Shown: positions 9,829-51,235 of the stretch, piece by piece
How positions within the stretch are numbered: position 1 is the stretch's first letter
How the letters are laid out: the number at the start of each line of letters is the position of its first letter
NCBI GenBank assembly: GCA_051313645.2
Contig: JBNRSN020000003.1
Coordinates: 84,444,001-84,508,000 of the forward strand
DNA: 64,000 bases
Source: Centroscyllium fabricii
Taxonomy: Eukaryota
Direction of reading: 5' to 3'
The notes under the pieces: model-generated
The model's input: the letters and a program-made list of their open reading frames with translations, nothing else
Told to the model about the DNA's origin: nothing
Database searches by the model: none
Position numbers and translations under genes: made by a program

Positions 9829-12800
9829 TGATGCACAATCAATTACGCCAGTCGATGGTGAGATGTAATCGAGGCTTTTATTCACATTGAACAGGACACA
9901 GGTCCGACGATCTTCCAAGCCAAAGTGAGAGCACTCAGGTGTGCTCTCACTTTTATACCCAGTGGGCGGAGCCTGGGGAGGAAGCCGAGGAGCGGAGTCC
10001 TCCCAGGTGAGTCCTCCCTGGCAGGGAGACGTTCCGTGCATTTACAGGGAGGGGACACAAGGGGGAGACATCTATACACAACATAGAGTGGTTTACCACA
10101 TTCACCCCCTGTTTAAAAAAATGAAGGCGGGGTGAGTGATCTTTTAATATATATATATACAAAGTTCAAATGTTCAGTCTGTCTGGCGGTCTGGTCTGCC
10201 GAGTCGACCGTCGCAGAGCTGGTCTTGGTGGCGTTTCCGGGGTCGACGGTTGTGCAGTCTCCAGCTGTTGTCTGATCCCTGTCCGTACGATGTCTTCCGA
10301 AGTCGGTGGTGGCGCAGCCGTGGGGGGGTGGGGGTCATGCGTCGGTCCATCCCGCATTTCCACTGTGCCGCCTACTGGAGCTATAAGGGAACCATACGAC
10401 AGCGTCTCGTGAAGGGGAACGGTGGTGGTGGTGGGGGTGGGGATGGGGGTAGGGTGGCCGGTGGTCTCTGGGGCCCCCGAGGGCGCAAGGTCCCTAATGG
10501 AGACCGTGTCCTCCCGCCCGTTTGGGAACGCCACGTCGGCGTACTGGGGGTCGGCGTGGAGGAGCTGCACCCTCTCGACCAGGGGGTCTGTCTTGTAGGC
10601 CCTCACGTGTCTCCGGAGCAAGACAGGCCCGGGAGACGTCAGCCATGTTGGCAGCGAGGTCCCGGATGCAGACTTCCTGGGGAAGCAAAACATCCGCTCG
10701 TGGGGGGTGGCATTGGTGGCGGTGCAGAGCAGTGACCTGATGGAGTGGAGGGCATCTGCGAGAACCTCCTGCCAGCGGGAGGCGGGGAGGCCCCTGGACC
10801 GCAGGGCAAGGCTGATGGCCTTCCAGACGGTGCCGTTCTCCCGCTTAACCTGCCCGTTGCCCCGGGGGTTGTAGCTGGTGGTCCTACTCATCGCAATCCC
10901 TTTGCACAGCAGGTACTGGCGCAGCTCGTCACTCATGAACGCTGACCCCCTGTCTGAGTGAATATAGTTGGGGTAGCCGAACATGGCAAAGATGCTGTGT
11001 AGACTCCTGATGGTTGTGGCTATGGTCATGTCTGGGCACGGGATTGCGAAGGGGAAGCGTGAGTACTCATTGATCACTGTCAGGAAGTACCCATTCCTGT
11101 TGGTGGAGGGGAGGGGGCCCTTGAAATCGACGCTCAGTCGTTCATAGGGGCAGGTGGCTTTGACCAAGCTGGCTCTGCTAGGCCGGAAAAATTTAGGTTT
11201 GCACTCCGCGCAGGTGGGGCAGTGCCTGGTGACTTCCCGGACGTCCGAGACCGAGTAGGGCAGGTTGCGGGACTTCACGAAGTGAAAAAGCTGCGTGACT
11301 CCGGGATGGCAGAGGTCATTGTGGATGGCTTGCAGTCTATCCACTTGTGCGCTGGCACAGGTTCCACGGGATAGTGCGTCCGGGGGCTCATTGAGTTTAC
11401 CGGGCCGGATGTCATAATTATAGGTGGACAGTTCAATTCTCCACCGTAGGATTTTATCATTTTTGATTTTACCCCGCTGGTTGTTACTAAACATGAAAGC
11501 CACCGACCGCTGGTCAGTGAGCAGGGTAAATCTTCTACCGGCCAGGTAGTGTCTCCAGTGCCGCATCACTTCCACGATGGCCTGGGCCTCCTTCTCCACT
11601 GATGAATGCCTGATTTCAGGGCCATGGAGGGTGCGGGAGAAGAAGGCTACCGGCCGTCCAGACTGGTTGAGAGTGGCGGCCAGGGCAAAGTCAGAGGCAT
11701 CACTTTCCACCTGGAACGGGGCGGATTCGTCCACGGCATGCATTGTCGCCTTGGCGATGGCTTCTCTGATGCTGTCGAAGGCTGCATGAGCCTCGTTCAA
11801 CAGGGGGAAGGAGGTGGATTTCAGGAGGGGGCGGGCCTTGTCAGTGTACTGGGGGACCCATTGGGCGTAGTACGAAAAGAAGCCCAGGCACCTTTTCAGG
11901 GCTTTTGGGCTCTGGGGGAGGGGGAGCTCCATGAGGGGGTGCATGCGTTCGGGGTCCGGGCCAATGACCCTGTTTGCCACGACGCACTCCAGGATGGCGA
12001 GGCGGGTGGTGCGGAAAACCCATTTTTCCTCATTGTAAGTGAGGTTGAGGAGCTTGGCGGTGTGGAGGAATTTGGCCAGGTTGGCATCGTGGTCCCTCAT
12101 GTCGTGGCCGCAGATCGTGACGTTGTCGAGGTAGGGGAAGGTAGCCAGCAGCCCGTTTTGGTCCACTATCCGATCCATCTCCCGCTGGAAGACCGACACG
12201 CTGTTGGTGACCCCGAAGGGAACCCTCAGAAAGTGGTAGAGGCAGCCATTCGCCTCAAAGGCGGTGAAGTGGCGGTCTCCAGGGTCGATGGGGAGCTGGT
12301 GGTAAGCCGATGTGACCATGTCTGAGATGCGAGGCAGGGGGTATGCGTCCAATTGGGTGAAGCGGTTGATCGTCTGGCTGTAATCGATGACCAGGCGGTG
12401 TTTGGTGCCGGTCTTGACGACTACAACCTGGGCTCTCCAGGGGCTGTTGCTGGCCTCGATGATCCCCTCCTTCAGTAGCCGCTGGACCTCAGACTTAATA
12501 AACAGTCTGTCCCCCGTGCTGTAGCGCCTGCTCTTGGTAGCTATGGGCTTACAGTTGGGGGTGAGGTTAGCAAATAGTGAGGGAGGGGAGACTTTAAGGG
12601 TCGAAAGGCCGCAAACGGTGTGGGGTTCGCGTTGCGCGAACTGCTGGCTACAGACAGTCAACGGGGGGAGGGAACCACCGTATTTCATAATAACACTGTC
12701 GAGGTGGCTCTGAAAGTCAAGGCCCAGTAGGACAGCAGCGCAGAGGTGGGGGAGGACTAATAGTTTAAAATGGTTGTACACGGTACCCCGCACTTTCAAT

Positions 12801-14329
12801 GTTACTACGCAAATCCCACCGACTTCTGCCGACGCGGCGTTGGAGGCCATTAGGATCCACTGGTGCACGGGGAGTACCGTGAGGGAAAGCCTCCGTACAG
12901 TGTCCGGGTGTATGAAACTTTCGGTACTCCCCGAATCGAAAAGGCAATTAACCGTACAGCCGTTTACCTCAATGTCCATTTTCGATCGCGCCTGTTGGTG
13001 AGGCCGGGTCTGGTCCAGTGTCACCGATGCGAGTTGTGGGAGCTCCGTCGTCAGGCGTGGTGATGTCCACTGGTCGCACGCTGCTGAGTAGGCCTCAAGA
13101 TGGCCGCCCTGTGGGAGAAAACGTGGTTCTGTTCCAAGATGGCTGCCCCCGTATTCACTGTGTGGAGGGGGGGAGGGTGCAAGATGGCCGTCTGATCCAA
13201 GATGGCCGCTGCCACAGTCGCCACGTGGGGGTGAGTGCTGGTTGCCCCAAAATGGCCGCTCTGATGGGGCCCACGCGGCGCTGCTGGAGGGGGATGGTCT
13301 GCTCTTACAGACTGCTGCATAATGTCCCTTCTTCTTGCAGCTGGAGCACAGCGCTTCTTTAGCAGGGCAGCGCTGCCTGGGGTGTTTTGACTGTCTACAG
13401 AAATAGCACTTCTGGGGTCGGGCCACTGCCGCGGACGTGAGTGGGGGCGCAGCGGTGGTCGTCTCGCCCGCCCACGAGGTCAGCGCTCGCGCACCATGCT
13501 GGTCGTAGGACTCTCTTTGCAAGTGCGCAGCCTCCAGCGATTCTGCCAGCTTTTCAGCTGCCGCCAGGCCTATGTTACTTTGCTCCAGCAGCCGCTGGCG
13601 CGTATAGGATGACCTGAGTCCAGCCACCAGCGCATCCCTTAGGATTATGTCCTGGTGCTCGGTGGCTGTCAGCGGCCTACAATTGCAGGCACGCATGAGC
13701 GTTCGCAACGCTGCCATATAGTTCGTTAAAGACTCACCAGGCTGTTGTTTCCTGTTCAACAGTAGATGCCTGGTGTAGATCTCGTTTGTCGGTATCGCAA
13801 ACCGAGCTTTTAGGGCGTCCAGGGCGTCCCTGTAGGTCGTATCGCCCTCGATTAGGCTGAAGAGCTCGGGGCTGACCTGGGCCCGCAGGACGTTGAGCTT
13901 CCGCTGGTCTGTGTCCACGGTCAGGCGGGATTCCGCGAGGAAGGCCTCGAAGCAGGAGACCCAGTGAGTGAAGGCCCACTCAGCGCCTGCTGATCGCGGG
14001 ACGACATTAAGTCTGTCGGGTCTCAGGAACTTCTCCATCCTCATTGCAGAAAAAACAATGTGAATAAAACTGATCGGCAGTCGATGGTGAGATGTAATCG
14101 AGGCTTTTATTCACATAGAACAGGACACAGGTCCGACGATCTTCCAAGCCAAAGTGAGAGCACTCAGGTGTGCTCTCACTTTTATACCCAGTGGGCGGAG
14201 CCTGGGGAGGAAGCCGAGGAGCGGAGTCCTCCCAGGTGAGTCCTCCCTGGCAGGGAGACGTTATGTGCAGTTACAGGGAGGGGACACAAGGGGGAGATAT
14301 CTATATACAACATACAGTGGTTTACCACA
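9829..14329 (-). mobile_element. Gypsy element A (family lacking a tRNA PBS), nested in the 3' LTR of the previous element
   Basis: LTRs 9829-10100 and 14071-14329; TSD GACAC (9824-28/14330-34); PPT AGGGGGTGAA. Confidence 0.95.
10166..14044 (-). CDS. gag-pol: Gag-Pol polyprotein, 1292 aa (2 zinc knuckles, protease DSGS, RT YLDN, RNase H, integrase); RT motif A deleted
   Basis: Open ORF with a canonical domain order; ISDMVTSAYHQ versus ISDMVNQIAQYKVFSTIDLKSAYHQ in element B. Confidence 0.9.
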   Translation of the reverse strand: MRMEKFLRPDRLNVVPRSAGAEWAFTHWVSCFEAFLAESRLTVDTDQRKLNVLRAQVSPELFSLIEGDTTYRDALDALKARFAIPTNEIYTRHLLLNRKQQPGESLTNYMAALRTLMRACNCRPLTATEHQDIILRDALVAGLRSSYTRQRLLEQSNIGLAAAEKLAESLEAAHLQRESYDQHGARALTSWAGETTTAAPPLTSAAVARPQKCYFCRQSKHPRQRCPAKEALCSSCKKKGHYAAVCKSRPSPSSSAAWAPSERPFWGNQHSPPRGDCGSGHLGSDGHLAPSPPPHSEYGGSHLGTEPRFLPQGGHLEAYSAACDQWTSPRLTTELPQLASVTLDQTRPHQQARSKMDIEVNGCTVNCLFDSGSTESFIHPDTVRRLSLTVLPVHQWILMASNAASAEVGGICVVTLKVRGTVYNHFKLLVLPHLCAAVLLGLDFQSHLDSVIMKYGGSLPPLTVCSQQFAQREPHTVCGLSTLKVSPPSLFANLTPNCKPIATKSRRYSTGDRLFIKSEVQRLLKEGIIEASNSPWRAQVVVVKTGTKHRLVIDYSQTINRFTQLDAYPLPRISDMVTSAYHQLPIDPGDRHFTAFEANGCLYHFLRVPFGVTNSVSVFQREMDRIVDQNGLLATFPYLDNVTICGHDMRDHDANLAKFLHTAKLLNLTYNEEKWVFRTTRLAILECVVANRVIGPDPERMHPLMELPLPQSPKALKRCLGFFSYYAQWVPQYTDKARPLLKSTSFPLLNEAHAAFDSIREAIAKATMHAVDESAPFQVESDASDFALAATLNQSGRPVAFFSRTLHGPEIRHSSVEKEAQAIVEVMRHWRHYLAGRRFTLLTDQRSVAFMFSNNQRGKIKNDKILRWRIELSTYNYDIRPGKLNEPPDALSRGTCASAQVDRLQAIHNDLCHPGVTQLFHFVKSRNLPYSVSDVREVTRHCPTCAECKPKFFRPSRASLVKATCPYERLSVDFKGPLPSTNRNGYFLTVINEYSRFPFAIPCPDMTIATTIRSLHSIFAMFGYPNYIHSDRGSAFMSDELRQYLLCKGIAMSRTTSYNPRGNGQVKRENGTVWKAISLALRSRGLPASRWQEVLADALHSIRSLLCTATNATPHERMFCFPRKSASGTSLPTWLTSPGPVLLRRHVRAYKTDPLVERVQLLHADPQYADVAFPNGREDTVSIRDLAPSGAPETTGHPTPIPTPTTTTVPLHETLSYGSLIAPVGGTVEMRDGPTHDPHPPTAAPPPTSEDIVRTGIRQQLETAQPSTPETPPRPALRRSTRQTRPPDRLNI

Positions 14330-14402
14330 GACACCATTAAAATCTACTCGAATTCAGTTTGAGAGTTTGCCATTGATTTCACCCTGCAAACGCAACAAGG
14401 GC

Positions 14403-17011: not shown

Positions 17012-17602
17012 TACATTTCTAATTTTATAGAAGTGATTTGTAAAAATATTATAATGGCACTTGATATTAATCTTCACATTTGAAGGGATTCATGCTACTT
17101 CCTCCCACACATGTGATCTCCAAGTTCTAGTGCACTTGAGGAAATCTTCAAATTACTATTGATGAGGAGGTAAGTGCCTTCAAATGTTATCCTAAAATGA
17201 TAATTTGTTATCTGATTTGAATTTGACAGAGCCGACAGACTGACCAGCAAAGACTGAAACCAGAGTTATGTAGCGCCGGCAGGCCCAAAAACCACACGTG
17301 AGCCAGAGCTAAAGAAAAACACAGCTTTACTAACAAGTGAAAAACAAGAAAGAGGCAGAACCACTCAGGACAGGCTTATTTAAACGATCCCGCGGTTGGT
17401 GACGTCATCGCGTCGGCCGACGTGATGACGTAGTCGCGTCACCCGGATGTGCGGAGCTTTGCTCCGCGGAGTCCCCGTGGCGGATTCGATATCCCCGTGG
17501 GTGTACCGCCACACAGCTCCCCCCAGAATCCGTCCGGGAGGAATAGTGAAAGTGTCTATGTGTGCCGTTGGGGTGGCCGGATGATGCGGCCGGACCGTGT
17601 TG

Positions 17603-20600
17603 CTAGTAGTCTCTGGTTCTGCGTGGAGTGTGGGCGGGTTTTGTTGCGGGAGGGCGACCGCATTGAGGTGGTTGTGCGGGGACCGTGGTCTCGCCCGCTA
17701 TCACATGTGCCGGCTTGAGCCGGTCTATTGTTACAGTTTCAGTTCTGTTACCCAATTGTAAATCAAAAGTTTTAGCTCCCGCCCGAAGCACTCTGTATGG
17801 GCCATCATAAGGTGGCTGTAGTGGAGATCGGTGTCCGTCGCGCCGGATGAACACGAATTTGGCATTTTTAATTTCCTCCGGCACCCGAGCTGCCGGCTCT
17901 CCATGCCAGGCCACTGGTAGTGGCTGGAAAGCTCGTGCCGGGTTTGCAAAGTCTTTTAAATACTGGGCTGCTGACCAGGGAGCGTTGGGCTCAGCCAGGA
18001 ATTCGCCCGGCACTGTTAAAGCTTGGCCGTAGACGAGCTCCGCTGCTGAGGCATTAAGGTCTTCTTTGATTGCCGAGCGCAGCCCGAGGAGGACCCATGG
18101 AAGGCGGTCGGTCCATGATGCGTCTTTCAGCGTGGCCTGTAGTGATGCCTTCATCGAGTGGTGGAACCGTTCGCATAGGCCGTTCGCCTGTGGGTGGTAT
18201 GCGGTGGTTCTGTGTAGTGTCACCCCGAGGTCGCGGGCGATGGCCGCCCATAAAGTCGACGTAAACTGGGGTCCTCTGTCGGAGGTGATGTCTGTGGGCA
18301 CGCCGAATCGAGCGACCCAGGTGGCGATAAACGCCCTGGCCAAGTCCGTGGTGCCTGTGGTGGTGAGGGGGACTGCTTCAGGCCAGCGAGTGTTGCGGTC
18401 GACCATGGTCAATAGGTGTGTGTGGCCGCGAGATGGCGGTAGTGGCCCGATGAGGTCAATATGGACGTGGTCAAAACGCCTGGCCGGTACCTTAAAATTT
18501 TCCAGCGGTGCCCTGATGTGCTTGTGCACTTTGGAGCGCTGGCAGGCTATACAGGAGCTGGCCCAGGCGCGGACGTCTTTGCGCAGGCCGCGCCATACGA
18601 AACGGGCCGATATTAGCTTAATGGACGCGCGGGCGCCGGGGTGGGACAGGTCGTGGAGGGTCCTAAAGATATGTTGCCTCCAAGCGTGGGGCACGACTGG
18701 CCTGGGTTGCGGTAACGAAACGTCACAGCAGACGACGGTGGCAGCGGGGCCGTGCGCGATATTGGCCAAGTGTAGGCCGGGGAGATTAGTTGCTGCGTTA
18801 AGTAGGTCAGGGTCGGCCAGCTGGTCAGCGGCCAGCTGGGCGTAATCAACCGCCATTTGGGCAGCGTTAATGGTGGGGCGTGAGAGGCAGTCAGCGACCA
18901 CGTTGTCGCGGCCGGAAATGTGCTGAATGTCGGTTGTAAATTCCGACACGGCCGCGAGTTGGCGCTGCTGCCTGGCCGACCAGGGTTCAGCGACCTTAGC
19001 CATCGCAAACGTGAGTGGCTTGTGGTCGCTGAAGGCTGTAAAGTGGCGGCCCTCCAAGAGGAAACGAAAATGTCGCACCGCCAGATGGAGAGCAAGTAGC
19101 TCCCTATCAAAGGCGCTGTATTTAACCTCTGGGGGCCGGAGTTGCCGGCTGAAAAAGGCCAGGGGCTGCCACGAGTCGCCGGTCCACTGTTCAAATACGG
19201 CCCCGACCGCATGGTCGGAGGCGTCGGTGGTTAGGGCTACTCTGGCGTTGGGCCTAGGGTGGGCCAGGAGAGTGGCGTTTGCCAGGGCCGTTTTAGTTGC
19301 GGTAAAGGCGGTGGCGGCGTCGGCCGTCCACACAACCGCAGCCTTGTTGGACTGCCCGCGGGTGGCCTGATATAATGGGGCCATGAGAGCGGCTGCTCCG
19401 GGGATGAAGCGATTATAAAAGTTTACCATCCCTAAAAATTCCTGCAGCCCTTTAATAGTGTGCGGGCGAGGAAATTCCTGTACCGCCTGCACCTTGGAGG
19501 GCAGGGGAATGGCCCCTGTGGGCGAAATGCGGTGGCCGAGGAAGTCAATGGTCTCGAGGCCGAACCTACATTTGGTGGGGCTCAGGATAAGGCCGTGCTC
19601 AGTAAGGCGCTGGAACAGGGTCCTGAGGTGCAGGAGGTGTTCCTGGGGGGAGGTGCTGGCCACGAGGATATCGTCTATGTAGACGAATATGAACTTCAAG
19701 TCCCTGAGGACTGAGTCCATGAGGCGCTGGAAGGCCTGGGCCGCGTTTTTGAGGCCGAAGGGCATCCTCAGAAATTCGAAGAGCCCGAAGGGGGTAATTA
19801 CGTCCGTTATAGGAATGTCCGCCGGGTGTACGGGCACCTGGTGGTAGCCACGCACCAGGTCGATCTTGGAAAAGATCGTACACCCCGCTAATCTGGCGGA
19901 AAAGTCCTGGATGTGGGGTACGGGGTACCTATCCGGGGTAGTGGCATTGTTGAGGTGGCGGTAGTCGCCGCAGGGGCGCCAACCTCCGTCGGGCTTGGGG
20001 GCTATGTGGAGAGGAGAGGCCCAGGGGCTGTTGGAGCGGCGGATTATACCGAGTTGCTCCATGGTGCGGAACTCGGTGAGCGCGATCTCCTGCTTGGCTG
20101 GGTCGAGCCTGCCGGCGTGGGCATGGACGGGGGAACCTGTGGTCGTTATAAAATGCTCTACCCCGTGTTTGGCCTTACGGGCGGTGAACGTGGTAAGGGC
20201 GGGGAACTCTGCCAGGAGCGTGCCGTAGGCATCGGGGTCCCTGGAGCGGCATTGGGCTGCCGCGTGGGCCAGGAGTGCGGGCCCTGTGGAGCATGGGATG
20301 GTCGTCATGGTGTTTAAATTCACCAGGCGGTGCCGAGTTACATCGACCAGTAGGCCGTAGGCGCAGAGGAAGTCTGCCCTGAGGAGGGGAGAAGTGACCT
20401 GGGCCGTTACAAAATCCCAGGTGTACGCGTGGCTTGCAAGGGTAATGGTTAACTTGCGGGTGCCGTACGTTTTTATATTAGTGCCGTTGGCTGCCGCTAG
20501 TGGCGGGCCCCGGGTACCTCGTTTGGTTTCTGCAGGGGAGGCTGGCACGATGCTGTGCTGCGCGCCTGTGTCGTAGAGGAACCTGAGGCCAGTACCGCTG

Positions 20601-20641
20601 TCTGTGGTGAAGAGCAGTGCTCCTGTGTGGCCTACAGACAT
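17603..20641 (-). CDS. pol: Pol (protease DTGA, RT YIDD, RNase H, integrase with GPY), 1012 aa
   Basis: Open ORF with all motifs. Confidence 0.93.
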   Translation of the reverse strand: MSVGHTGALLFTTDSGTGLRFLYDTGAQHSIVPASPAETKRGTRGPPLAAANGTNIKTYGTRKLTITLASHAYTWDFVTAQVTSPLLRADFLCAYGLLVDVTRHRLVNLNTMTTIPCSTGPALLAHAAAQCRSRDPDAYGTLLAEFPALTTFTARKAKHGVEHFITTTGSPVHAHAGRLDPAKQEIALTEFRTMEQLGIIRRSNSPWASPLHIAPKPDGGWRPCGDYRHLNNATTPDRYPVPHIQDFSARLAGCTIFSKIDLVRGYHQVPVHPADIPITDVITPFGLFEFLRMPFGLKNAAQAFQRLMDSVLRDLKFIFVYIDDILVASTSPQEHLLHLRTLFQRLTEHGLILSPTKCRFGLETIDFLGHRISPTGAIPLPSKVQAVQEFPRPHTIKGLQEFLGMVNFYNRFIPGAAALMAPLYQATRGQSNKAAVVWTADAATAFTATKTALANATLLAHPRPNARVALTTDASDHAVGAVFEQWTGDSWQPLAFFSRQLRPPEVKYSAFDRELLALHLAVRHFRFLLEGRHFTAFSDHKPLTFAMAKVAEPWSARQQRQLAAVSEFTTDIQHISGRDNVVADCLSRPTINAAQMAVDYAQLAADQLADPDLLNAATNLPGLHLANIAHGPAATVVCCDVSLPQPRPVVPHAWRQHIFRTLHDLSHPGARASIKLISARFVWRGLRKDVRAWASSCIACQRSKVHKHIRAPLENFKVPARRFDHVHIDLIGPLPPSRGHTHLLTMVDRNTRWPEAVPLTTTGTTDLARAFIATWVARFGVPTDITSDRGPQFTSTLWAAIARDLGVTLHRTTAYHPQANGLCERFHHSMKASLQATLKDASWTDRLPWVLLGLRSAIKEDLNASAAELVYGQALTVPGEFLAEPNAPWSAAQYLKDFANPARAFQPLPVAWHGEPAARVPEEIKNAKFVFIRRDGHRSPLQPPYDGPYRVLRAGAKTFDLQLGNRTETVTIDRLKPAHVIAGETTVPAQPPQCGRPPATKPAHTPRRTRDY

Positions 20642-21377
20642 GGTGGGGGCTGAGTTGGGCCGTGGCTTAAACGCGCATGGCTGGACGCAGCGGTGCGCTT
20701 TGTGGTTGAACCGCGTGTGGTAGTAGCACCAGCCGGTGCTAGAGGGACGCGGTTGTCTAGGCGGGCACGGGGCCCTAGGTTCAGGCGTAAAGTTGTGCCT
20801 GGGGGGTGAATAGCTGCGTTCCGACCGATGCCGAGTTAGGGTCGCACGTGGTGGAGCGGGTGCGCTGCGCCTCCATCAGCCTGTCGGCTTCCTCACCGAG
20901 CTCATCGTCGCTGCGATGGCCTAGGGCCGCCAAGGCCGGTCTGATGGCGCGGGGTAATTTGAGGAGGAAGACGGTGCAAAATAAGGAGGCCGGATTGGGT
21001 GTGAGCGCCTGCATCTGACCTAAGAGGTCCGATGGGTCTGCGTCCCCGAGTTCGGGGAGGTCGAGGAGCTGGCAGTCGCGCTCAAACTGAGAGGGGGTAA
21101 AAATTTTAATAAGCGCGGCCTTAAGCGTTTCATACCTGCCTGCAGCGGGCACGCGCTGGATCTTTGACCACATCCTATCGATGGTCGTCTGTGGAAGGGC
21201 TGTGAACACCAAGTCGTAGCGGTCATCCCCTTGTATGCCATGTGAGCGGCAGCTGGCCTCTATGCAGACAAACCAGGCCGCTGGCCGTTGCTCCCAGAAC
21301 TCGGGTAAAGTAAGTCCACGCCCGGCGTTCTGTCCAGCTCCTTGCGTTCGTGGAGCTTGGTTTCTTGTGCTAACCAT
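20642..21377 (-). pseudogene. gag: gag, frameshifted
   Basis: LPEFWEQRPAAWF...; the frame breaks before the CHCC knuckle. Confidence 0.85.
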
Positions 21378-21948
21378 GCTTTCTGTTAAAAGTCTTTGGC
21401 TGGTGGTCCCAGGTCCTGTGGCAGCTTTTCCTTCACTGGAAGTTGTTCCAGTTCGGGGTCACCACTGTAGCGCCGGCAGGCCCAAAAACCACACGTGAGC
21501 CAGAGCTAAAGAAAAACACAGCTTTACTAACAAGTGAAAAACAAGAACGAGGCAGAACCACTCAGGACAGGCTTATTTAAACGGTCCCGCGGTTGGTGAC
21601 GTCATCGCGTCGGCCGACGTGATGACGTAGTCGCGTCACCCGGATGTGCGGAGCTTTGCTCCGCGGAGTCCCCGTGGCGGATTCGATATCCCCGTGGGTG
21701 TACCGCCACAGTTACTACATTTTTCTGATGCTAGAACAATGGGTTTTTTCTGTTTCTTCTTTACAATTGTGGTTAGGTAACTATTTACATCACCTCTTAT
21801 ATAAAAAATAACCATCTAAAGTAAGTATTTCTTGAAACTTTGGAATAGTAAATTTCTCTTCTGAAACGACATTTAAAAACAGTTTTCATTGTCTTTTCTA
21901 CCCCATAGAAATTCCACTTAACTAAAACCAGGAAAGCGTTTTTTTCAT

Positions 21949-31701: not shown

Positions 31702-32105
31702 TATAACTAATAAAAACATAAGAACATAAGAAATAAGAGCAGGAGTAGGCCATACAGCCCCTCGAGCCTGCTCCACCATTCAATAAGATCATGGCTGATC
31801 ATCGACCTTGACGTATCGTCAATTTGTCTTAATAAAAGACTGGACGAGTAGTTACCGTAACTAAAGGCTTTTATTAACTTACTTTGGAGCTACCCTCCGA
31901 ACGAACATCAGAACAGAATGAGGGAGCCCCGGTCAGTCCTCACCTATAAAGGCCTCACCTGGGGGAGGAGTTAGAGGTGTGGCTGACCTGGCTCCACGAC
32001 AGTATTACAGGGCTGTGTATCACACAAAGCCAATGTTGGCGACAATAATACAGTGGTAATAGTATATACAATATGGGTTACCACATTCACCCCTTCTTGA
32101 AAATT

Positions 32106-35100
32106 TTAAGTCCGGCGGGGTGAATGGACAGAGCAGTTCAATATGAGCTTGTCCGGCGGTCGTGTCAGCCTGGAGGACCGCCGGGGCTCCGATAAAGGTT
32201 CCTTGTGTTCCGTACTGCTCGAGTCCGGTGGTGATGACAGCGGCTCTGGTGCCGTGATTTCAGATGCTGGTGGTCTCAAATGGTCCGAGCCATCGGAATG
32301 GAGGTCTTGGGCTGGCCACGGCTGGGGCTCTGGAAACCTCGGAGGCCATCGTAGATGTAGAGGGTGTTCTAGATACTGTGGCTGGGCGGGCTGCTGCCCG
32401 ACCAGGGGCTCTGCTGTGGTGCTTCCTGCGGGCGCCAGGTCCCTGATGGATACGGTGTCCTCGTGCCCGTCCGGGAACTGTATGAAGGCATATTGCGGGT
32501 TCGCATGCAGGAGCTGCACCTTATCCACCAGGGGGTCGGTCTTGTGGCCACGGATGTGTCGTGAGCCATGGAGGAAGAGCTGTCCCCGAAGTCGACTTCC
32601 TGGGGAAGGAAAAAATCAAGTCATGAGGGGTGGCGTTAGTGGCCGTACACAGGAGAGAGCGTATTGAATGCAGCGCATCTGGGAGGACTGCCTGCCAATG
32701 GGCCACTGGAAGGCCTCTGGACTTCAGGGCCAGGGTGACCGCCTTCCAGATGATCCCATTCTCCCTTTCTACCTGGCCGTTCCCCCGGGGGTTATAACTG
32801 GTCGTTCTGCTCGTGGCAACCCCTTTCTGGAGCAGAAACTGACGCAGTTCATCGCTCATGAACGATGACCCCCGGTCGCTATGGATGTAGCTGGGGAGAC
32901 CGAAAATGGCGAACAGCGTGGTGAAGTGTTTTATCACCGTTGCGCTCGTCATATCTGCGCAGGGGAAGGCGAAGGCGAAGCGGGAGAACTCATCTACGAG
33001 CGTGAGGAAGTATGAGTTGCGGTCGGTGGTGGGGAGGGTGTCTTTGAAGTCCATGCTGAGACGTTCAAAGGGGCGGGTGGCCTTGATGAGGTGCACCGTG
33101 TCTGGCCGGAAAAATTGGGGTTTGCACTCGGCGCAAACAGGGCACTCTCGGGTCATAGCCTTGATCTCCGTGATGGAGTAGGGGAGGCTACGGGATCTAA
33201 CGAAGTGGGCGAGTCTGGTGACACCCGGGTGGCAAAGGCAGTCGTGGAGGTCCTTCAGCCGGTCTAGCTGGGCACTGGCGCACGTTCCCCTGGACAGTGC
33301 GTCCAGGGGTTCATTGAGTTTACCTGGTCGGTAAAGAATGTCGTACTCGTAAGTCGAGAGTTCGATCCGCCACCGCAGGATCTTATCATTCTTGATTTTA
33401 CCCTTCTGTTTATTATTAAACATAAACGCCACCGACCGCTGGTCGGTGAGAAGGGTAAAACGCTTACCGGCCAGGTAATGACGCCAGTAGCGCACAGCCT
33501 CCACGATGGCCTGGGCCTCCTTTTCCACTGCAGAGTGGCGAGTTTCGGGTCCCTGTAGGGTGCGGGAGAAAAACGCCACGGGCCTGCCTGCCTGATTCAA
33601 GGTGGCAACAAGGGCAAAGTCCGAAGCGTCGCTCTCCACCTGGAAGGGAATGGATTCATCAACAGCGAGCATGGTCGCCTTGATGATGTCTTCCTTTATC
33701 CGGGCGAATGCCATTTGGGCGTCTACCGAGAGGGGGAAGACGGCAGCCTTGAGGAGTGGTCTAGCCTTGTCCGCGAACTGTGGGACCCATTGTGCGTAGT
33801 AGGAGAAAAATCCTAGGCATCTCCTCAAGGCTTTGTGGTTGTGAGGTAGGGGCAGTTCTTGTAGGGGGCGCATACGCTGTGGGTTGGGGCCGAGGACCCC
33901 GTTCTCCACCACGTATCCGAGGATGGCGAGCCGGTCTGTATTAAAGACACATTTGTCTTTGTTATACGTGAGGTCCAGCTTATCCGCCGTGTCAAGGAAT
34001 TTGGACAGATTGGCATCGTGGTCCTGCTGGTCGTGGCCGCAGATGGTCACGTTGTCCAGGTAAGGGAAAGTGGCCCGCAACTCGTTCTGGTCAACCATGC
34101 GGTCCATCTCCCGTTGGAACACTGACCCTCCGTTGGTCACGCCGAAGGGGACCCGGAGGAAGTGGTAGAGCCGACCGTTCGCCTCGAAGACGGTGTACGG
34201 GCGGTCGGCTTTCCGGATCGGGAGTTGGTGATACGCCGACTTAAGGTCGATCGTGGAGAACACCTTATATTGGGCGATCTGATTGACCATGTCCGAGATG
34301 CGGGGGAGGGGGTAGGCGTCGAGCCCGGTGTAGCGGTTGATATTCTGGCTGTAATCGATAACCAGCCGCTGTTTCTCACCAGACTTCACCACTACTACCT
34401 GGGCCCGCCAGGGGCTGGTGCTGGCTTCAATTATCCCCTCCTTCAGCATACGCCCGACCTCCGACCTGATAAACGTGCGATCCCCCACACTGTACCGCCG
34501 ACTCTTTGTCGCAATAGGTTTGCACTTGGGGTCGAGGTTGGCGAACAGTGAGGGGGGGTCGATTTTCACGGTGGAGAGGCCGCAGGCCGGGCTCCGCTTT
34601 GGGAAGGGACTGCCCGGCTACTGACGGTGAGGGGGGCAAGGTCCCGCTGAACTCCATTGTCACGCTCTTGAGGTGGCACTGGAAATCCAGACCTAGAAAG
34701 GCTGGGGCACACAACTGCTTGAGGGTGTACAATTTAAAATTACGGTACACGCACCCCTTGACTGTGAGCGTGACGGAGCAGTAGCCGGTGACGTCCGCGG
34801 TGTGGGACTGTGAAGCAAGGGAGACTTGGTAGTTCGTGGGCAGGATCTGCAGTCCGCAGCGCTGCACTGTATCGGGGTGCACAAAACTCTCCGTGCTTCC
34901 AGTGTCGAACAGGCAATCGGTAATATGGCCATTAATTTTAATTGGCATGATCGAATTTGAAAGGTTGTGCGGCCTATCCTGGTCCACTTTGGGTATGGCT
35001 GAGGTCGAAGTGTGCCTTTGTGTGTGGGGGCCCCCTGCTGGTTGGGGCTGTACACAAAATGGCGGCGCCCCTGGCTCGCACATGGTGGGGCCCTGGAGAC

Positions 35101-36355
35101 AAAATGGCGGCGCCCCTGGCTCGCACATGGTGGGGCCCTGGAGACAAAATGGCGGCGCCGGGGGGGTCGCACATGGCGGGCCGCTGGAGACGAGATGGCG
35201 GCGCCGGGGGTCGCACATGGTGGGCCACTGGAGGCAAGGTGGCGGCGCCCGTGGTTCGCACGCGGCTGACCGCTGTGAGCGCACTGGCGACGCCCGTGGT
35301 TTGCACGCAGCGGGCCGCGGTGACTGGGTTGGCGGTGCCCGTGGTTCGCACGCAGCGAGCCGCGGTGGTTGGGTTGGCGGTGCCCGTGATTCGCACGCAG
35401 CCGGCCACGTTGGGTCTGCTGCAGGCGTTGGGGTGTCGTGCTTGGCCGGCCTTTGCCGCATCAGGGTGGGGGATGGGGGCGCTTTCCTTCTACCCCCGGA
35501 CCGTCGCTGGATCGCGCTGCTATTGCAGCTTACCTGAGGTCTGACGGAGCTTTCACAGGCTGCGCTGTTGTACCTGGAGTTGGGCGCTGCTGGTGCTGAT
35601 CTGCAGGCCTTCGCATAGTGTCCCTTTTTGGAGCACCTCTCACAGGTCGCGGTCCTTGCTGGGCATCTCGCTCGTGGGTGCAGTCCCTGGCCGCAGAAAT
35701 AGCACCATTTGTCCTTTGCGGCTGTCGCAGCCATCGTGGGGGTCTCGACCCGTTGTGTTGCTGCCCAGGCCTGGGCCCGTTGTGGCGCGGCCCACATGTC
35801 GTAGGCCTGCGGGTTTGTGCCGCTGTACGCCTGCAGCTTATTGCGTGCTCCTTCAACGGAGTTAGCTATGGCGATCGCCTCCTCAAGAGTCAAAGAGTCC
35901 TTTTCGAGCAGCCGCTGGCGGGCTTCCACGCACCTCAGGCCAGTTACATACGCATCTCGGACGAGGAGGTTCGCCTCCTCTTCTGCTGTCCGGGCTTGGC
36001 AGCCACAGACCCGTACCAGGGCCTGGAGCACTTGCTCAAACTGTTCATTGGTCTCACCCGGTAGTTGTGGTCTGGTCGCGAGCACATGTCTGGCGTAGAC
36101 CGAATGGACCGGGCGCGCATAGCATTTCCTCAGCTTTTCCACTGCCCCTGGGTAGGTTTTGGCGTCTCGGATGAGGGAGAATACTTGGCTGGAGATCCTA
36201 GACCGGAGAACCTGCAACTTGTTCCCGTCGGTTGTAGCCTTGGCGGCGTCCATGTAGGCCTCCAGGAGACCGAACCAGTGTTCGAACATGGTGGCGGCGG
36301 CTGGGTCCTGTGGACTGATATCCAGCTTTTCTGGCTTTACCGCACCGCTCTCCAT
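32106..36355 (-). pseudogene. gag-pol: gag-pol, two frameshifts
   Basis: ORFs 34427-36355 (Gag, DTGS), 32521-34569 (RT YLDN, RH, IN) and 32106-32528. Confidence 0.92.
35055..35400 (-). repeat. Coding tandem repeats between Gag and protease (45-bp and 39-bp units; CEPGAPP/CEPRAPP)
   Basis: Repeated CAAAATGGCGGCGCCCCTGGCTCGCACATGG and GCCCGTGGTTCGCACGCAGC. Confidence 0.85.
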
Positions 36356-38687
36356 TTCAAAATTTTTAAGTTAATAAAATTGTCGTATCGTCAATTTGTC
36401 TTAATAAAAGACTGGACGAGTAGTTACCGTAACTAAAGGCTTTTATTAACTTACTTTGGAGCTACCCTCCGAACGAACATCAGAACAGAATGAATGAAGA
36501 AATTCCTCCTCATCTCAGTCTTAAATGGCCGACCCCTTATCCTGAGACTATGCCCCCTAGTTCTAGACTCTCCAGCCAGGGGAAACAACCTCTCAGCATC
36601 TACCCTGTCAATCCCCCTCAGAATCTTGTATGTTTCAATGAGATCACCTCTCATTCTTCTAAACTCCAGAGAGTAAAGGCCCATTCTACACAATCTCTCA
36701 TCATAGGACAGCCCTCTCATCCCAGGAATCAATCTAGTGAACCTTTGTTGCACTGTCTCCACAGCAAGTCCTCACCTATAAAGGCCTCACCTGGGGGAGG
36801 AGTTAGAGGTGTGGCTGACCTGGCTCCACGACAGTATTACAGGGCTGTGTATCACACAAAGCCAATGTTGGCAACAATAATACAGTGGTAATAGTATATA
36901 CAATATGGGTTACCACAGACCTCAACTCCACTTTCCCGTCCGATCTCCATATCCATTGATTCCCCTGGAGTCCAAAAATCTCTCTATCTCAGCCTTGAAT
37001 ATACTCAAAGACTCAGTACCACAGCCCTCTGGGGCAGTGAATTGCAAAGATTTACAACCCTCTGAATGAAGAAATTCCTCCTCATCTCAGTCTTAAATGG
37101 CCGACCCCTTATCCTGAGACTATGCCCCCTAGTTCTAGACTCTCCAGCCAGGGGAAACAACCTCTCAGCATCTACCCTGTCAATCCCCCTCAGAATCTTG
37201 TATGTTTCAATGAGATCACCTCTCATTCTTCTAAACTCCAGAGAGTAAAGGCCCATTCTACACAATCTCTCATCATAGGACAGCCCTCTCATCCCAGGAA
37301 TCAATCTAGTGAACCTTTGTTGCACTGTCTCCACAGCAAGTACAGGGTATATCCTTCCTTAGATAAGGAGACCAAAACTGTGCACAGTACTCCAGGTGTG
37401 GTCTCACCAAGGCCCTGTACAAGCAAGACTTCCTTACTCTTATACTCCAACTACCTTGCAATAAAGGCCAACATGCTATTTGCCTTCCTTATTGCTTGCT
37501 GTACCTGCATGCTAACTTTCTCTGTTTCTTGCATGAGGACACCCAAATCTCTCTGAACACCAACATTTGAAAGTTTATCACCATTTTAAAAATATTCTGT
37601 TTTTCTATTATTTCTACCAAAGTGAATAACCTCACATTTCCCTACATTATACTCCATCTGCCACCTTACTGCCCACTCACTTAGTCTATCGATATCCCTT
37701 TGCAGACTCTTTGGCTGCAATCTTACCTGAGGTGGCACGTTGGGGGTGGGACTGCTGGTTTCTGGGTTCTAGTCCCGCCCCCAGCAACGTCTGACGAACA
37801 AACGCTATTTTCCATTGATTGGCTTTGTTAAGCCCGCCCTGCAGGCTTGCCGGCCAATTCAGGAAAAGCCGGTGTCAGTGCATGGCGCTTCATCTGCCGG
37901 TTTTGTTAAAGGGACAAGCCCCATAATTTTTTGACAGATGAATTGTCAGTGTTTGACAGCACTGAGGTGCACCAATGACTCTCTCTTTAAGAGAAAACAG
38001 ATGGCAGTTGCATGTGAGATTGCAGAAACCATCTGTCAATTCTCCCGATCAGATGAGGCTTCACACAAACGTCAAATCTTGTCACCTGCAGATACATATA
38101 AACAGAATAAAAATATTTCTCACTACATTCTCTCACCTGTCATACCTGTGTACCATTGCACCCATCACACTACCTCTGCAGCTGCCATTTGCACACTTAC
38201 ACTGCAGCAGACCCACAGCTCACCTCACTGACCCTGGCGGGGTTTCCTGCCATTGGGAAGGCCGCATCAGCAGGCTGAAAATGGGGAATCGCCTCTTAAC
38301 TAGGCAGTTCATTGGCTCTAATCCCCTTCCTGCCGCTAGGAGATGGATCGCTGTGCGAGTCAGGGACCTGCTTCCCGGGAGGATGGTTCGGAGGCGGGTT
38401 GGTAGTGGGGTTGGGACCCTCTCCCAATTTTTCCCATTTTCCCAGCAGTCCAGGGAATTTGTCGGCTTTTAAACCCATTAGTTTCTCGAGTACATTTTCT
38501 CTACTTATATTAATTACGTTAATGGAACACAGAGGGAGAAAAAAAAGAGCAGGGGTGATTTCATAACTGCTTACCCAGCAGAAACCAGGCGGGCAGATAA
38601 AATCACCTGGATCACATTATCCACTGGCGTCCTTCTTTTATCCCACAGTCTGAGATTTTAACCTGCTAGTTTAACCATGGGCCTGAG

Positions 38688-44287: not shown

Positions 44288-44299
44288 AGTCCTTAACTT

Positions 44300-45030: not shown

Positions 45031-45054
45031 ATTCTGGCTTATTGGGGTAAAATG

Positions 45055-45395: not shown

Positions 45396-46698
45396 TCTTC
45401 TTTTCCGGCGTTTTCGCGGTAACAATGGCGTTTCCCGCCCTAGCGCCGCTTCCCCGCGGGGTTTTTTAAAATTTTCTTTTCCCCACTGCGGTCTGGTCAG
45501 CAATTCCTCACCTCGGGTCTCCCTGGAGCTGGATCTGGACCTCGATTTCTGCAGGCCTTCTCCCCCCCCCCCCCCCTGCGGAGCTCTGCTGGCTGCTGTT
45601 GCTTACTCTGCAGGTCGCTGTGGGGCTCGCTCTGGCTGCTGTCGCCGTCCGCTGAAGGCTGCTACTGGTGATCGCCGGCGCTGATCTGCAGGTTTCTGTC
45701 TTGAGCTTCTCCGTCTGCTGTAAGCTGCTGCTGGATCTCGTTTGAGCGCCTTGCCACACTCCTTTCAGTGTGTAGGCCTCCGAGTTCCTCCTTCAAAACG
45801 CTGCCCCTCCTAGACTCGAGGAGCAGGGCGTGCCATAGCCATTGATGGATCCGTTCCGGTAAGAACTCTCCTCATTTCGCTAGTGTGGCCGAATGCACAG
45901 CTATGCATTCGATTTATCTCGTCGCCACTGTTAAATCTATCGCCATTGCTACGTTTAATGTTAGAAGGAGGACAAATGACGACAGACTCAGGTTAAGTTC
46001 TAACTGGGTGATGTTTACTGTACATGGTAAAATCACAACTTAACCCGTGGCGCTTCTCGCGCCACCATATTTACATTAGCTTACAGCATAGTCTACTAGA
46101 GTACTATAATACAATACAATACATATACAATTCAATTTATTGTCATTGTAAAGTGAACACAATACAATGAAATGCAAACATGCAATCTCCCAAAGAAACA
46201 ATAGATGTTAAAATGTCCTCTCCTGTAAGTCCCAGTCTGGTCCATAATGCCCCCCTGACGGCTAACTCATCGAGGACTGAGGACTAATGGAAGACTAAAG
46301 AGGAACTACACACGTGAGCTTATATACACACGACAGTGGCTGGTAAGGGTACTGCAGCCTGGTAACATCACATGATGCAGTGCCCAGCACCATCCTTAAA
46401 GGCACAGGCCATCGTATAGCACCGGGGTGATATAGAGGGGTGATGCCGAGGTAGAGTCTAGCATCATCAGTACATAGGTGTATGTTGTCCATACACCACA
46501 GAATTAGATATAGATTTATGACTGAGGGAAATCTACTGGAGTGTTGTGCTTGTTGGTTTTCCTTACTTCCCCATGTGCACTTAACCTCAATTATAAACTC
46601 CAACATGGTGCTATAAACTATATTGGTGTACTGAAATAACAACAGAAAATGCTGGAAATGCTCAGCAGGTCAGGCAGCACCTGTGGAGAGAGAAACAG

Positions 46699-46735
46699 AG
46701 TTAACTTTTCAGGTCTGTGACCCTTCGTCAGAACT
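46699..46735 (-). ncRNA. Hammerhead motif (stem III mutated)
   Basis: AGTT-CTGACGA-AGGGTC/GACCT-GAAAAGTT-AACT. Confidence 0.55.
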
Positions 46736-46999: not shown

Positions 47000-49900
47000 T
47001 CATTGGAACAGTGTAGAAGGCCAAGGACAGAGAGGTCAGAGTGAGAGTGGAGTGGAGAATTAAAGTGACAAGCGACCGGAAGCTCGGGGTCACCCTTAAG
47101 AACTGAACGGAGGTGTTCCACAAAGCGGTCACCCAATCTGCATTGGGTCTCGCCAATGTGGAGGAGACCGCATCGTGAGCAGTGAATACAGTATACTAAA
47201 TTGCAAGAAGTACAAGTAAATCGCTGTTTCACCTGGAAGGCGTGTTTGGGGCCGTGGACAGTGGGAAGGGCGGGCAGGTGTTGCATCTCCTGTGCTTACA
47301 TGGGAAGGTAGCATAGGGAGGGGAGGGGCTGTTGGAGGTGATAGAGGAGTGGACCAGGGTGTTGCATAGGGAGCGGTCCCTTCAGAATGCTGAAAGGGGA
47401 GGGGAGGGAAGATGTGTTTGGTGGTGGTATCACGCTGGAGGTAGATCCGTTGAATGTGGAGGCTGGTGGGGTGAAAGGTGAGGACAAGGGTGTGATAAAC
47501 CACTGTTTCTCACTGTTCTTATTGTATATACTTACCCCGCCTGTATCTATGTAATCGTACCTAATACCATGTTGTACATAAACCTGTTATACGATTACCG
47601 GGACATACCCAGGTTGGCTCCGCCCATGACTCCTCCCTCCCAGGAGGGGGTACATAAGTGGCCGTCTCCCATCCCCCGGCCATACCTGGGGACAGTCGAC
47701 TAGCTGGTGTATGTCCCACCATTTAGTTAATAAAAGCCGCATTGTTTCTCTTCCTAACTACTCGTCCACGAGGTCGTTATTTCGGTCACAATTTTATTAA
47801 CTAAATTTTGAAGATGGAAACCATGCTCAAGCCAGCAACGTTTGAACTGGACCCCCGGACACCAGGTGCATCAAACACTTTTACACACTGGTACAGTGTT
47901 TTCGATGCGTACCTGAGAGCGAACGCAGCGGTCGTCGTGACCGAAGAGGACAAACGACGGCTCCTCAACGCCCGGGTGGGCCCTCAAGTGTACTCCATGA
48001 TCGTGGACGCATCATCGTACTTGGATGCTATCAGGATCCTCAAGGTGGAGTACAACCGGGCACCCAATATCGTCCACGCAAGACATCTCCTAGCCACCAG
48101 GAAGCAGCAACCCGGTGAGTCCAGCGTGGAATTTTTAAGAGCGCTGAGAGTGCTTTCACGGGCCTGTGACTGCAGATCGCTAACGTTCCCGATCCATGCG
48201 GACAGTCTCATTAGAGACGCATATGTGACAGGCCTCAGGTCGGACTATATAAGACAGAGGCTGTTAGAACAGAACGGCCTTGACCTGCAGGCAACTACGG
48301 ATCTGGGACACGCGCTGGACGTGGTCTCGCTAAACCTCTCATCTTACTCCGGCAACTATACGGGCCCAGCCCCGCCATCTTGGACAACGCCGGCGCAACG
48401 GCCGGTGGAAGAAATGATCGCAGCCGCTCACGCGAAGACGGCTAAATGTTACTTCTGCGGGCAGTCTCAGCATCCGAGACGTAGCTGCCCGGCAAGAGAA
48501 GTGGCGTGCTCGAAATGTGGAAAAAATGGAAATTACGCCAAAGTCTGTAAGGCGACCACATCAGCCCCTAAACCGAAACCGGGCAGCGCCGCGTGTGGAA
48601 CATGGGAGCAGCCATATTGGACTCAACCATCCCCCACTCAGCACCCCGCATGGCAGCTCGGTGTTCTGCGGCATTAAGAACAACATCGCAAAAGCCACAA
48701 TGCACGTTGTGGACGAGTCCGTCCCATTTCAAATAGAAAGCGATGCATCGGACTTTGCCCTGGCCGCCACCCTTAACCAGGCGGGCAGACCCGTGGCCTT
48801 CTTCTCACGTACCCTCCAGGGCCCCGAGACCCGTCACTCCTCAGTCGAGAAGGAGGCCCAGGCCATCGTTGAAGCAGTGCGTCACTGGAAGCACTACCTG
48901 GCCGGCAAGCGTTTTACCCTGTTGACTGACCAACGATCAGTCGCCTTTATGTTCAACAACAAAGAGCGGGGTAAAATCAAGAACGACAAGATATTGAGGT
49001 GGAGAATTGAACTCTCCGCGTTTAATTACGATATCTTGTACCGGCCCGGGAAATTTAACGAACCCCCAGATGCCCTATCCCGCGGTACCTGTGCCAGTGC
49101 ACAGACAGACCGCCTCCAAACCCTGCACAATGACCTCTGCCACCCGGGGGTCACCAGGTTGGTTCACTTCGTGAAGTTCCGCAACCTCCCCTACTCCATC
49201 GAAGAGGTCAAGACTCTGACCAGCAACTGCCAGGTCTGCGCGGAGTGCAAGCCGCACTTCTACCGGCCAGACCGGGCGCATTTGATTAAGGCCACTCGCC
49301 CCTTTGAACGACTCAGCGTCGATTTCAAAGGCCCCCTTCCCTCCTCCAACAGGAATGTGTACTTCCTTAACGTGATCGATGAGTACTCCCGCTTCCCCTT
49401 TGCCATCCCCTGCCCGGACATGACCTCCGCCACTGTTATCAAAGCCCTCCACAGCATCTTCTCCCTGTTCGGCTATCCCAACTATATTCATAGTGACCGG
49501 GGAGCGTCCTTTATGAGTGACGAGCTGCGTCAGTTTCTGCTAGCCAAAGGCATCGCGACTAGCAGAACTACCAGCTACAACCCCCGGGGGAACGGGCAGG
49601 TAGAGAGGGAGAATGCCACTGTCTGGAAGGCCATCCTGTTAGCCCTACGGTCTAAAAGCCTCCCAGTCTCTCGATGGCAGGACGTCCTCCCTGAGGCGTT
49701 CCACTCTATCCGGTCCCTCCTGTGTACTGCCACTAATGCCACCCCTCACGAACGACTTTTTGCCTTCCCCAGGAAGTCGGCTTCCAGGACCTCGCCACCA
49801 TCGTTGCTGCTGTCCCCGGGACCGGTCCTACTACGGAAGCACGTGAGGGGCCACAAGGCAGATCCCCTGGTCGAACGGGTCCACCGCCTGCACGCCAATC

Positions 49901-51235
49901 CCCAGTACGCCTACGTGGCGTACCCCGACGGGAGGGAGGACACAGTGTCCATCAAGGACCTGGCACCAGCGGGAGTCCCCAAACCCAGCCCCGCCCAGCA
50001 GCCCGCGCACCCAAGATGCCCCGCCCAGCAGCCCGCGCACCCAAGATGCCCAGTCACGCCACCCCAGCCACCGGCGCCAAGGTACGCTCCCCGGCACGTG
50101 GACCCAGTACCCCAGTACGCCCACCCGGCACCTGCGAGCAGCACGGCAAGGCCTCCAGCATGGCTCCACAGTGCACGCCCTCTAGAGTCAGACGACGAGG
50201 GGGAGAGCGCGCCTCCTACTGTCGGTATAAGGGCACCACCACCACCCAGAAACCAACCGACGACCACAGCTCGCCAACCTGCATCAGCACCATCGCTACA
50301 ACCGACTCGGCCGGCCACTCCGCGACCGCGGACACCACCAGCGGTGCGACGCTCGACAAGGATCACCAGACCACCGGATCGACTTAATTTATAAATAAAA
50401 GAACTGTTGCTTTCACCCCGCCGGACTTTTGTTTTAAAGAAGGGGTGAATGTGATAAACCACTGTTTCTCACTGTTCTTATTGTATATACTTACCCCGCC
50501 TGTATCGATGTAATCGTACCTAATACCATGTTGTACGTAAACCTGTTATACGATTACCGGGACATACCCAGGTTGGCTCCGCCCACGACTCCTCCCTCCC
50601 AGGAGGGGGTACATAAGTGGCCGTCTCCCATCCCCCGGCCATACCTGGGGACAGTCGACTAGCTGGTGTATGTCCCACCATTTAGTTAATAAAAGCCGCA
50701 TTGTTTCTCTTCCTAACTACTCGTCCACGAGGTCGTTATTTCGGTCATTGGAACAGTGTAGAAGGCCAAGGACAGAGAGGTCAGAGTGAGAGTGGAGTGG
50801 AGAATTAAAGTGACAAGCGACCGGAAGCTCGGGGTCACCCTTAAGAACTGAACGGAGGTGTTCCACAAAGCAGTCACCCAATCTGCATTGGGGCTCGCCA
50901 ATGTAGAGGAGACCGCATCGTGAGCAGTGAATACAGTATACTAAATTGCAAGAAGTACAAGTAAATCGCTGTTTCACCTGGAAGGCGTGTTTGGGGCCGT
51001 GCACAGTGGGAAGTGCGGGCAGGTGTTGCATCTCCTGTGCTTACATGGGAAGGTAGCATAGGGAGGGGAGGGGCTGTTGGAGGTGATAGAGGAGTGGACC
51101 AGGGTGTTGCATAGGGAGCGGTCCCTTCAGAATGCTGAAAGGGGAGGGGAGGGAAGATGTGTTTGGTGGTGGTATCACGCTGGAGGTAGATCCGTTGAAT
51201 GTGGAGGCTGGTGGGGTGAAAGGTGAGGACAAGGG
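47000..51235. repeat. 491-bp direct duplication (47000-47490 = 50745-51235) flanking element C
   Basis: Direct comparison, ~5 mismatches. Confidence 0.92.
47491..50747 (+). mobile_element. Gypsy element C (family lacking a tRNA PBS); protease/RT deleted; 3' LTR lacks its last 2 nt
   Basis: LTRs 47491-47790 and 50450-50747 (3 mismatches); gag 47808-48677, RH+IN to 50394; PPT GAAGGGGTGAA. Confidence 0.93.

Follow-up and report, generated by a model that had tools for sequence, protein, structure and literature searches.

We analysed a 64,000-nucleotide (nt) stretch of the genome of the shark Centroscyllium fabricii (assembly GCA_051313645.2, contig JBNRSN020000003.1, positions 84,444,001 to 84,508,000 of the forward strand), hereafter called the window, which contains three Gypsy long terminal repeat (LTR) retrotransposons, A, B and C (Table 1). 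In each of them the primer-binding site (PBS) begins 1 nt after the CA that ends the LTR, and it is complementary to a segment of the element's own LTR that includes the poly(A) signal. We propose that minus-strand DNA synthesis in these elements is probably self-primed by this internal LTR segment, after a cut of the RNA at the border TAAA(A)/RCC. The pairing and the position of the PBS are observed directly, as are the covariation of the two paired strands and the exchange, in natural recombinants, of the U5 stretch as a unit present in both LTRs. Cleavage, priming, the transcription start site and the masking of the 5' poly(A) signal are inferred. An earlier sequence-only reading of the window had placed the motifs of A, B and C where we find them, next to the LTR and without TGG, and had suggested a candidate self-priming system.

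Pairing and covariation in a clade of Gypsy elements

Elements were collected with a Gag profile from the window, from 100 content-blind 10-kb stretches and from 90 loci of metagenome and genome contigs; the genome assembly measures 7.2 Gb. Of the elements collected, 74 had 200 nt or more of sequence ahead of gag and formed the sample: 40 belong to this genome and 34 to other assemblies, one of which supplied about a third of the 34. At the remaining contig loci no gag start could be used. In an anchor-free search, 56 of the 74 elements paired at 13/13 and 67 at 12/13 or better. When 370 dinucleotide shuffles were searched identically, one reached 13 and one reached 12, and only 3 of 1482 swaps of PBS and LTR between elements reached 13. 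The 39 distinct PBS paired on average at 12.8 positions with their own LTR versus 9.2 with other LTRs, and for 32 of them the own LTR was strictly the best partner. When the 30 best copies of each element in the window were examined, 28 for A, 28 for B and 30 for C paired at 12/13 or better. A Gag tree of 69 elements requires 77 or more compensated changes under parsimony, a figure that may be raised by errors in the tree and by recombination; the separate Gag trees for family A, for family B and for the beta2 copies had poor resolution. According to these results, the pairing is a real feature of the whole clade. The paired elements of other assemblies are 43-66% identical to B in the reverse transcriptase (RT)-RNase H region, and the named protein homologs include one nematode, one sea anemone and two insects, known from proteins alone. 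No relative of the clade was found in the viral contigs searched. Some contigs binned as bacterial genomes (L211-L220) carry these elements, likely through contamination by animal host DNA.

The other Gypsy clades of this genome have TGG primer sites; the PBS of the self-complementary clade starts with TTT, and no TGG follows the LTR. Six TGG-type controls, drawn from three other Gypsy groups, reached a best self-pairing of 6-8/13. Local TGG-primed elements share about 30% RT identity with the self-complementary clade, which lies far from two local TGG-primed groups in an RT tree built with local outgroups and no named references. The Gag profile of the clade weakly matches the Gag of TGG-primed elements of this genome.

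Covariation also holds within a single family, and one family of the clade has over 10,000 copies in this genome. Counting family B genome-wide by exact sequence patterns, we found that 10,497 of 10,573 copies keep the match between segment and PBS across an AATAAA/ATTAAA swap (6783 matched copies with AATAAA and 3714 with ATTAAA; 37 and 39 mismatched), and most of the 75 mismatched copies examined resemble single point changes on one background. The check on family members that the sequence-only reading had called for, namely whether the pairing covaries, is therefore positive at both scales. Its view that the LTRs of A, B and C are otherwise dissimilar fared less well, since B and C have LTR blocks of 13-14 nt in common and the first 7 PBS bases are common to all three. 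With A and B 76% identical in RT-RNase H, the three elements belong to one clade and are not three independent origins.

The 14/14 complement that had been claimed for A exists, and it lies in the 3' LTR; the 5' LTR copy pairs at 13 of 14 positions, with 12 contiguous matches (14105-14116) followed by a mismatched position 13 and a paired position 14. This 5' LTR also has a 13-nt deletion in U5 and a spacer G where the family has A. Where other copies had damage in the 5' segment, the 3' LTRs that were found were free of it (L014, L017, L021, L076; 3' LTRs were scored in 10 of 20 fetched stretches, one of them belonging to another element). The difference between the two segments of A therefore likely arose after insertion.

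Geometry of the duplex and the proposed priming reaction

Positions 1-13 pair in 40-45 of 45 distinct elements and position 14 in 24, a drop that may be exaggerated by the 13-nt window used in the search. At its end the LTR arm reads TAAA or TAAAA, and the next three bases are GCC or ACC (RCC) in 33 of the 39 distinct pairs. CAA precedes the PBS in 31 of 39, and the number of A residues in the arm changes together with the number of T residues in the PBS. A loop of 24-68 nt separates the two strands. G-U pairs are common in purely structural RNA helices; here they make up 2 of 897 pairs. In predicted folds the helix had a probability above 0.8 in 25 of 27 cases, and a hairpin starting at RCC scored 0.66 versus 0.35 for shuffled loops, exceeding the shuffle in 20 of 27. 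The hexamer at the end of the segment is AATAAA or ATTAAA in 32 of the 39 distinct pairs and GTTAAA or TTTAAA in 4, the other 3 being damaged copies. Two of the GTTAAA/TTTAAA families (L131 and L133) have a canonical AATAAA or ATTAAA in the loop, outside the duplex. B-like U5 loops (window 36390-36410; L104, L116, L120) hold a second, partial and partly covarying complement of the poly(A) segment. In L104 and L120 the predicted fold favours this complement, which might form an alternative hairpin early on.

The sequence-only reading had put the segment about 60-70 nt past a TATA-like box, and this agrees with the promoter motifs. Among the 25 shark rows with enough context (5 short ones were left out), 22 have a TATA box at -66 to -72 and 22 an initiator at -37 to -41; none has a TATA box at -20 to -35 before the segment. 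Transcription would thus start about 39 nt upstream of the segment, so that the primer would be internal, unlike that of Tf1.

We propose the following scenario. The leader RNA would fold so that the 13-nt LTR segment pairs with the PBS, and the RNA would be cut at TAAA(A)/RCC, likely by the element's own RNase H, as in Tf1. The primer would be the internal segment, carried on a 5' fragment of about 52 nt, from which RT would copy the loop as strong-stop DNA. The first strand transfer would have to rely on no more than the overlap between the cut and the poly(A) site (about 28 nt in family B), and this would account for a primer that stops at the poly(A) hexamer. The same duplex in the 5' LTR would also cover the hexamer, masking being a by-product. 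The idea that one duplex both primes and masks therefore has two unequal halves: the priming half is supported by the sequence patterns, whereas the masking half is weaker, as the families with GTTAAA or TTTAAA and those with a hexamer outside the duplex indicate. Masking of the hexamer in the 5' LTR is plausible without being essential, and not all families require it.

Natural recombinants and the competing explanations

The subfamilies of family B can be told apart by markers in U3 and the leader, at -55 and -10 before the segment, at 0 within it, from +10 to +58 in the loop and at +72 in the PBS. On this scale the predicted cut is at +5/+6, and the likely poly(A) site, a CA before a U-rich tract, is at about +33. 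We found 27 copies combining the segment and PBS of one subfamily with the distal loop of the gamma subfamily. In all 26 examined, U3, the pre-segment region, the segment, the PBS and gag come from one parent and only distal U5 is foreign; the switch lies at 0 to +10 in 18 copies, at +10 to +48 in 2, at +32 to +48 in 3 and within 0 to +48 in 3. Eight reciprocal hits comprised 3 of the mirror class and 5 from a separate lineage with an identical compensated double change. In the 29 recombinants in total, the exchange is confined to the U5 stretch between the paired segments. The chimeric join is present in both LTRs at 12 loci (25/37 hits), six of them at the normal 4.5-kb spacing. Since both LTRs carry the join, the chimeric LTR arose during reverse transcription, and gene conversion was rejected as the source of the U5 swaps. 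The joins fit a strong-stop DNA ending at the predicted cut after TAAA(A), which, together with the covariation, speaks for the candidate self-priming system.

These joins also bear on the question of which copy of the segment would act. One could imagine that the RNA 3' end, trimmed to TAAA(A), folds onto the PBS and primes from the 3' LTR copy, the 5' leader staying uncut. The segment is indeed present in both LTRs, the perfect copy of element A is the 3' one, and a 3' end within the A's is compatible with trimming of a poly(A) tail. However, the strong-stop DNA would then extend as far as the cap site, the loop would be transferred along with the segment, and joins would lie upstream of the segment; the localised joins lie at 0 to +48, and no clear upstream crossover was seen in 75 of 76 mismatched copies, L390 and L391 being ambiguous. 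The difference within A is likely post-insertional, and we consider this route unlikely. A start of transcription at the segment itself, with the first 13 nt of the RNA as primer exactly as in Tf1, would account for the recombinant joins equally well, and the sharp 13-nt length resembles the 11 nt of Tf1 in the accessible text of PMC7175516. The spacing of TATA box and initiator argues against such a start, which we judge very unlikely.

The duplex might instead merely hide the 5' poly(A) signal, with priming left to something else. The alternation of the hexamer between two canonical forms fits this explanation, and a PBS that exists solely after the 5' LTR would provide the needed asymmetry. 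Nevertheless, the duplex begins exactly where the primer 3' end defines the LTR end, its length is nearly fixed, it persists with GTTAAA or TTTAAA, and the families L131 and L133 have a canonical hexamer in the loop. The scarcity of G-U pairs and the lack of a TGG site after the LTR also argue against masking as the sole function, which does not predict the recombinant joins; we find it quite unlikely. Priming by a host RNA (a tRNA half, a small nuclear RNA or another small RNA), with an incidental match to the LTR, has a precedent in the half-tRNA priming of some Copia lineages (accessible text of PMC6317226). However, the 39 distinct PBS 13-mers each follow their own LTR, including swaps inside one genome, and no TGG is present. 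A single host RNA primer is excluded because the PBS changes with its own LTR, and host RNA priming in general appears extremely unlikely.

We also considered that the covariation could be caused by copying of the primer into the daughter PBS. The rarity of G-U pairs would be expected in this case, and the five copies of the separate lineage described above, in which the double change recurs (L336-338, L341, L342), fit it, as do three single copies (L285, L361, L424). The accessible part of PMC11042837 describes PBS-copied tails on Tf1 cDNA. However, about 20 beta2 copies that carry the gamma loop have retained the beta2 PBS, and no such copy with a gamma PBS was observed; before the beta2 leader, 2 gamma-type PBS stand against 736 of beta2 type.

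Several observations weigh against self-priming by an internal segment, or limit what the counts can carry. Seven of the 74 elements pair at 9-11 of 13 positions. A U5 hairpin at the terminal CA, which belongs to the structure of Tf1, is not conserved and exceeds the shuffle in only 10 of 27 cases (0.31 vs 0.26). The start site was predicted from motifs in related shark families, and no TATA box or promoter recurs consistently in the 24 rows from other assemblies. The 2x2 counts of family B mirror subfamily descent and should not be read as thousands of separate events. Recombinants in which segment and PBS match are able to multiply, those with a mismatch may be unable to, and the tree was too poorly resolved to count events; a fairer tally, made by eye, sets about 8 haplotype classes, and not 29 events, against 0-2 (the ambiguous L390 and L391). 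Crossovers were mapped in family B only, where the tracts of L376, L358 and L363 do not fit a simple transfer.

Relation to known systems and features of the window

To our knowledge, self-priming has been shown experimentally mainly for yeast Tf1, and it is treated as a chromovirus trait. In the accessible text of PMC7175516, Tf1 primes itself with the first 11 nt of its RNA, and its RNase H cuts the RNA duplex to make the primer. Like Tf1/Tf2, Tj1 and the Tf1/sushi chromoviruses, including the plant Tcn1 clade, the elements studied here are Ty3/Gypsy elements whose PBS complements their own LTR-derived RNA, and a cut at the duplex end would free a 3' OH (PMC7175516, PMC4600332, bioRxiv 10.1101/2022.12.06.519325 and PMC6317226, in their accessible parts). 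As described there, the Tf1/sushi primer is the RNA 5' end, and these elements usually have an integrase chromodomain and a three-duplex 'pretzel'. Here, in contrast, a 13-nt primer is predicted about 39 nt inside the RNA and ends at the poly(A) hexamer, the chromodomain is absent and the RT motif is mostly YxDN. No chromodomain was detected in the tails of A or C or in 8 homologs at E values up to 1, and none is listed for 120 homologs. Because it lacks a chromodomain and probably a 5'-end primer, the clade probably does not belong to the Tf1/sushi group.

Outside that group, self-priming is also predicted for the TAR lineage of plant Ty1/Copia elements (Houba, Osr-1; accessible text of PMC6317226), so that self-priming would have arisen more than once. 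The TAR lineage belongs to the Copia superfamily and to plants, and it is likened to the present clade by self-priming alone, not by geometry. The fungal GalEa Copia 'conserved hairpin site' and the bivalve TRIMs likewise have no tRNA PBS and show inverted repeats near the 5' LTR; however, both arms lie in the internal region, and the authors found no LTR complement, as far as the accessible parts of PMC5445492 and PMC6934838 go. The Mag-lineage Gypsy clades (A, B, C, MolGy) resemble ours in their wide animal distribution and in lacking a chromodomain. The double CCHC knuckle is a Mag trait; the local elements that the Gag profile weakly matches, unlike the self-complementary clade, have TGG sites, with the low RT identity given above. 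Finally, in the HIV-1 poly(A) hairpin, base pairing covers the AAUAAA of the 5' LTR; this is a local hairpin in R, unrelated to priming, for which HIV-1 uses a tRNA.

No description of the present arrangement was found in the full-text literature; Repbase, GyDB and subscription papers lay outside the search, and an earlier note there is possible. It is not described in the accessible parts of PMC3601003, PMC6317226, PMC6238403, PMC7175516, PMC4600332, PMC11042837, bioRxiv 10.1101/2022.12.06.519325, PMC8556966, PMC7472051, PMC6934838, PMC2871265 or PMC5445492. The readable supplements of PMC6238403 gave no motif match naming the clade, the accessible text of PMC8556966 and PMC2871265 does not mention a PBS, and a search of the literature on the YLDN motif returned no related paper.

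If our proposal is correct, a second, non-chromovirus clade of animal Gypsy elements uses an internal primer, which would mean another origin and a different substrate for RT and RNase H. Such a clade may also be beyond the reach of PBS-directed silencing by tRNA fragments, and annotation tools requiring a tRNA PBS will miss or mislabel its members. The proposal makes a sharp prediction: both the RNA and the strong-stop DNA should have ends at TAAA(A)/RCC. A broader picture, to which we would give about an even chance, is that a self-priming clade widespread in animals evolved independently of Tf1/sushi and cuts its primer inside the RNA exactly at the hexamer, that its 13-bp duplex has three roles, in priming, in masking the 5' poly(A) signal and in defining a functional R of less than 30 nt, and that the recombinants record the cut.

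Table 1. Features of elements A, B and C and of a control Gypsy family (window positions)
Feature	Position	Strand	Remarks
Element A, full-length Gypsy	9829..14329	-	5-bp target duplication GACAC at 9824-28 and 14330-34
A 3' LTR	9829..10100	-	polypurine tract adjoining at 10101-10115
A poly(A)-signal segment, 3' LTR copy	9876..9889	-	complements PBS 14/14
A gag-pol frame	10166..14038	-	two CCHC-type knuckles, protease, RT (YLDN), RNase H, integrase; without chromodomain
A PBS	14056..14069	-	1 nt past 5' LTR
A 5' LTR	14071..14329	-	TATA 14180-86; initiator-like A 14155 as predicted start
A predicted self-primer in 5' LTR	14105..14118	-	pairs 13/14; putative cut between 14105 and 14104
Element B	31809..36917	-	two frames, one for gag-protease and one for pol; target duplication of 5 bp at 31804-08 and 36918-22
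B 3' LTR	31809..32085	-	segment copy 31869-81
B PBS	36367..36379	-	partners 36441-53 and 31869-81
B 5' LTR	36381..36917	-	split by ~270-bp repeat fragment, ~36494-36766, upstream of segment
B predicted self-primer	36441..36453	-	13/13; putative cut between 36441 and 36440, from recombinants
Element C	47491..50747	+	~1.4 kb of pol deleted near 48657; 491-bp direct duplication flanks
C 5' LTR	47491..47790	+	
C predicted self-primer	47721..47735	+	15/15; putative cut between 47735 and 47736
C PBS	47792..47806	+	partners 47721-35 and 50680-94; gag ATG 47814
C 3' LTR	50450..50747	+	final CA (2 nt) missing; segment copy 50680-94
Control, other Gypsy family	17269..21710	-	TGG primer site, without self-complement, best 8/13
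Control, further stretches	28604-30318 and 55055-59503		

The three elements show Gypsy hallmarks, with LTRs bounded by TG...CA, a polypurine tract and, in A and B, 5-bp duplications, the flank of C being rearranged. Pfam gives the order protease-RT-RNase H-integrase in A and B; the best PDB match is the Ty3 RT (E 9e-47), and the RNase H acidic residues are kept. The closest named proteins, at 73-80%, come from rays and catsharks, and an Rfam search of the window gave no match. The RT catalytic motif is YxDN, not YxDD, in A and B (window 10166-14038 and 32521-34617) and in 92 of 120 homologs (P0001-P0120). Very abundant young families are among those with YxDN, and YxDD members of the clade exist too.

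Around C, the 491-bp direct duplication (47000-47490 and 50745-51235, 486/491 identical) stands in place of a 5-bp one, and the 3' LTR stops short at a TCA microhomology. Elsewhere, whole or deleted elements form tandem arrays with 5.3-kb and 2.9-kb spacing (L041, L043-L047; G000:C834:11143953-11149890). Element A lies within an older Gypsy element (window 5257-9828 and 14330 onward), in the 3' LTR of the latter. At about 8735-9594, the integrase frame of this older element terminates in a tandem array of 27-bp units. Another LTR element lies on the minus strand at 42559-46500; its primer site is of the TGG type and its 5' LTR contains an insertion.

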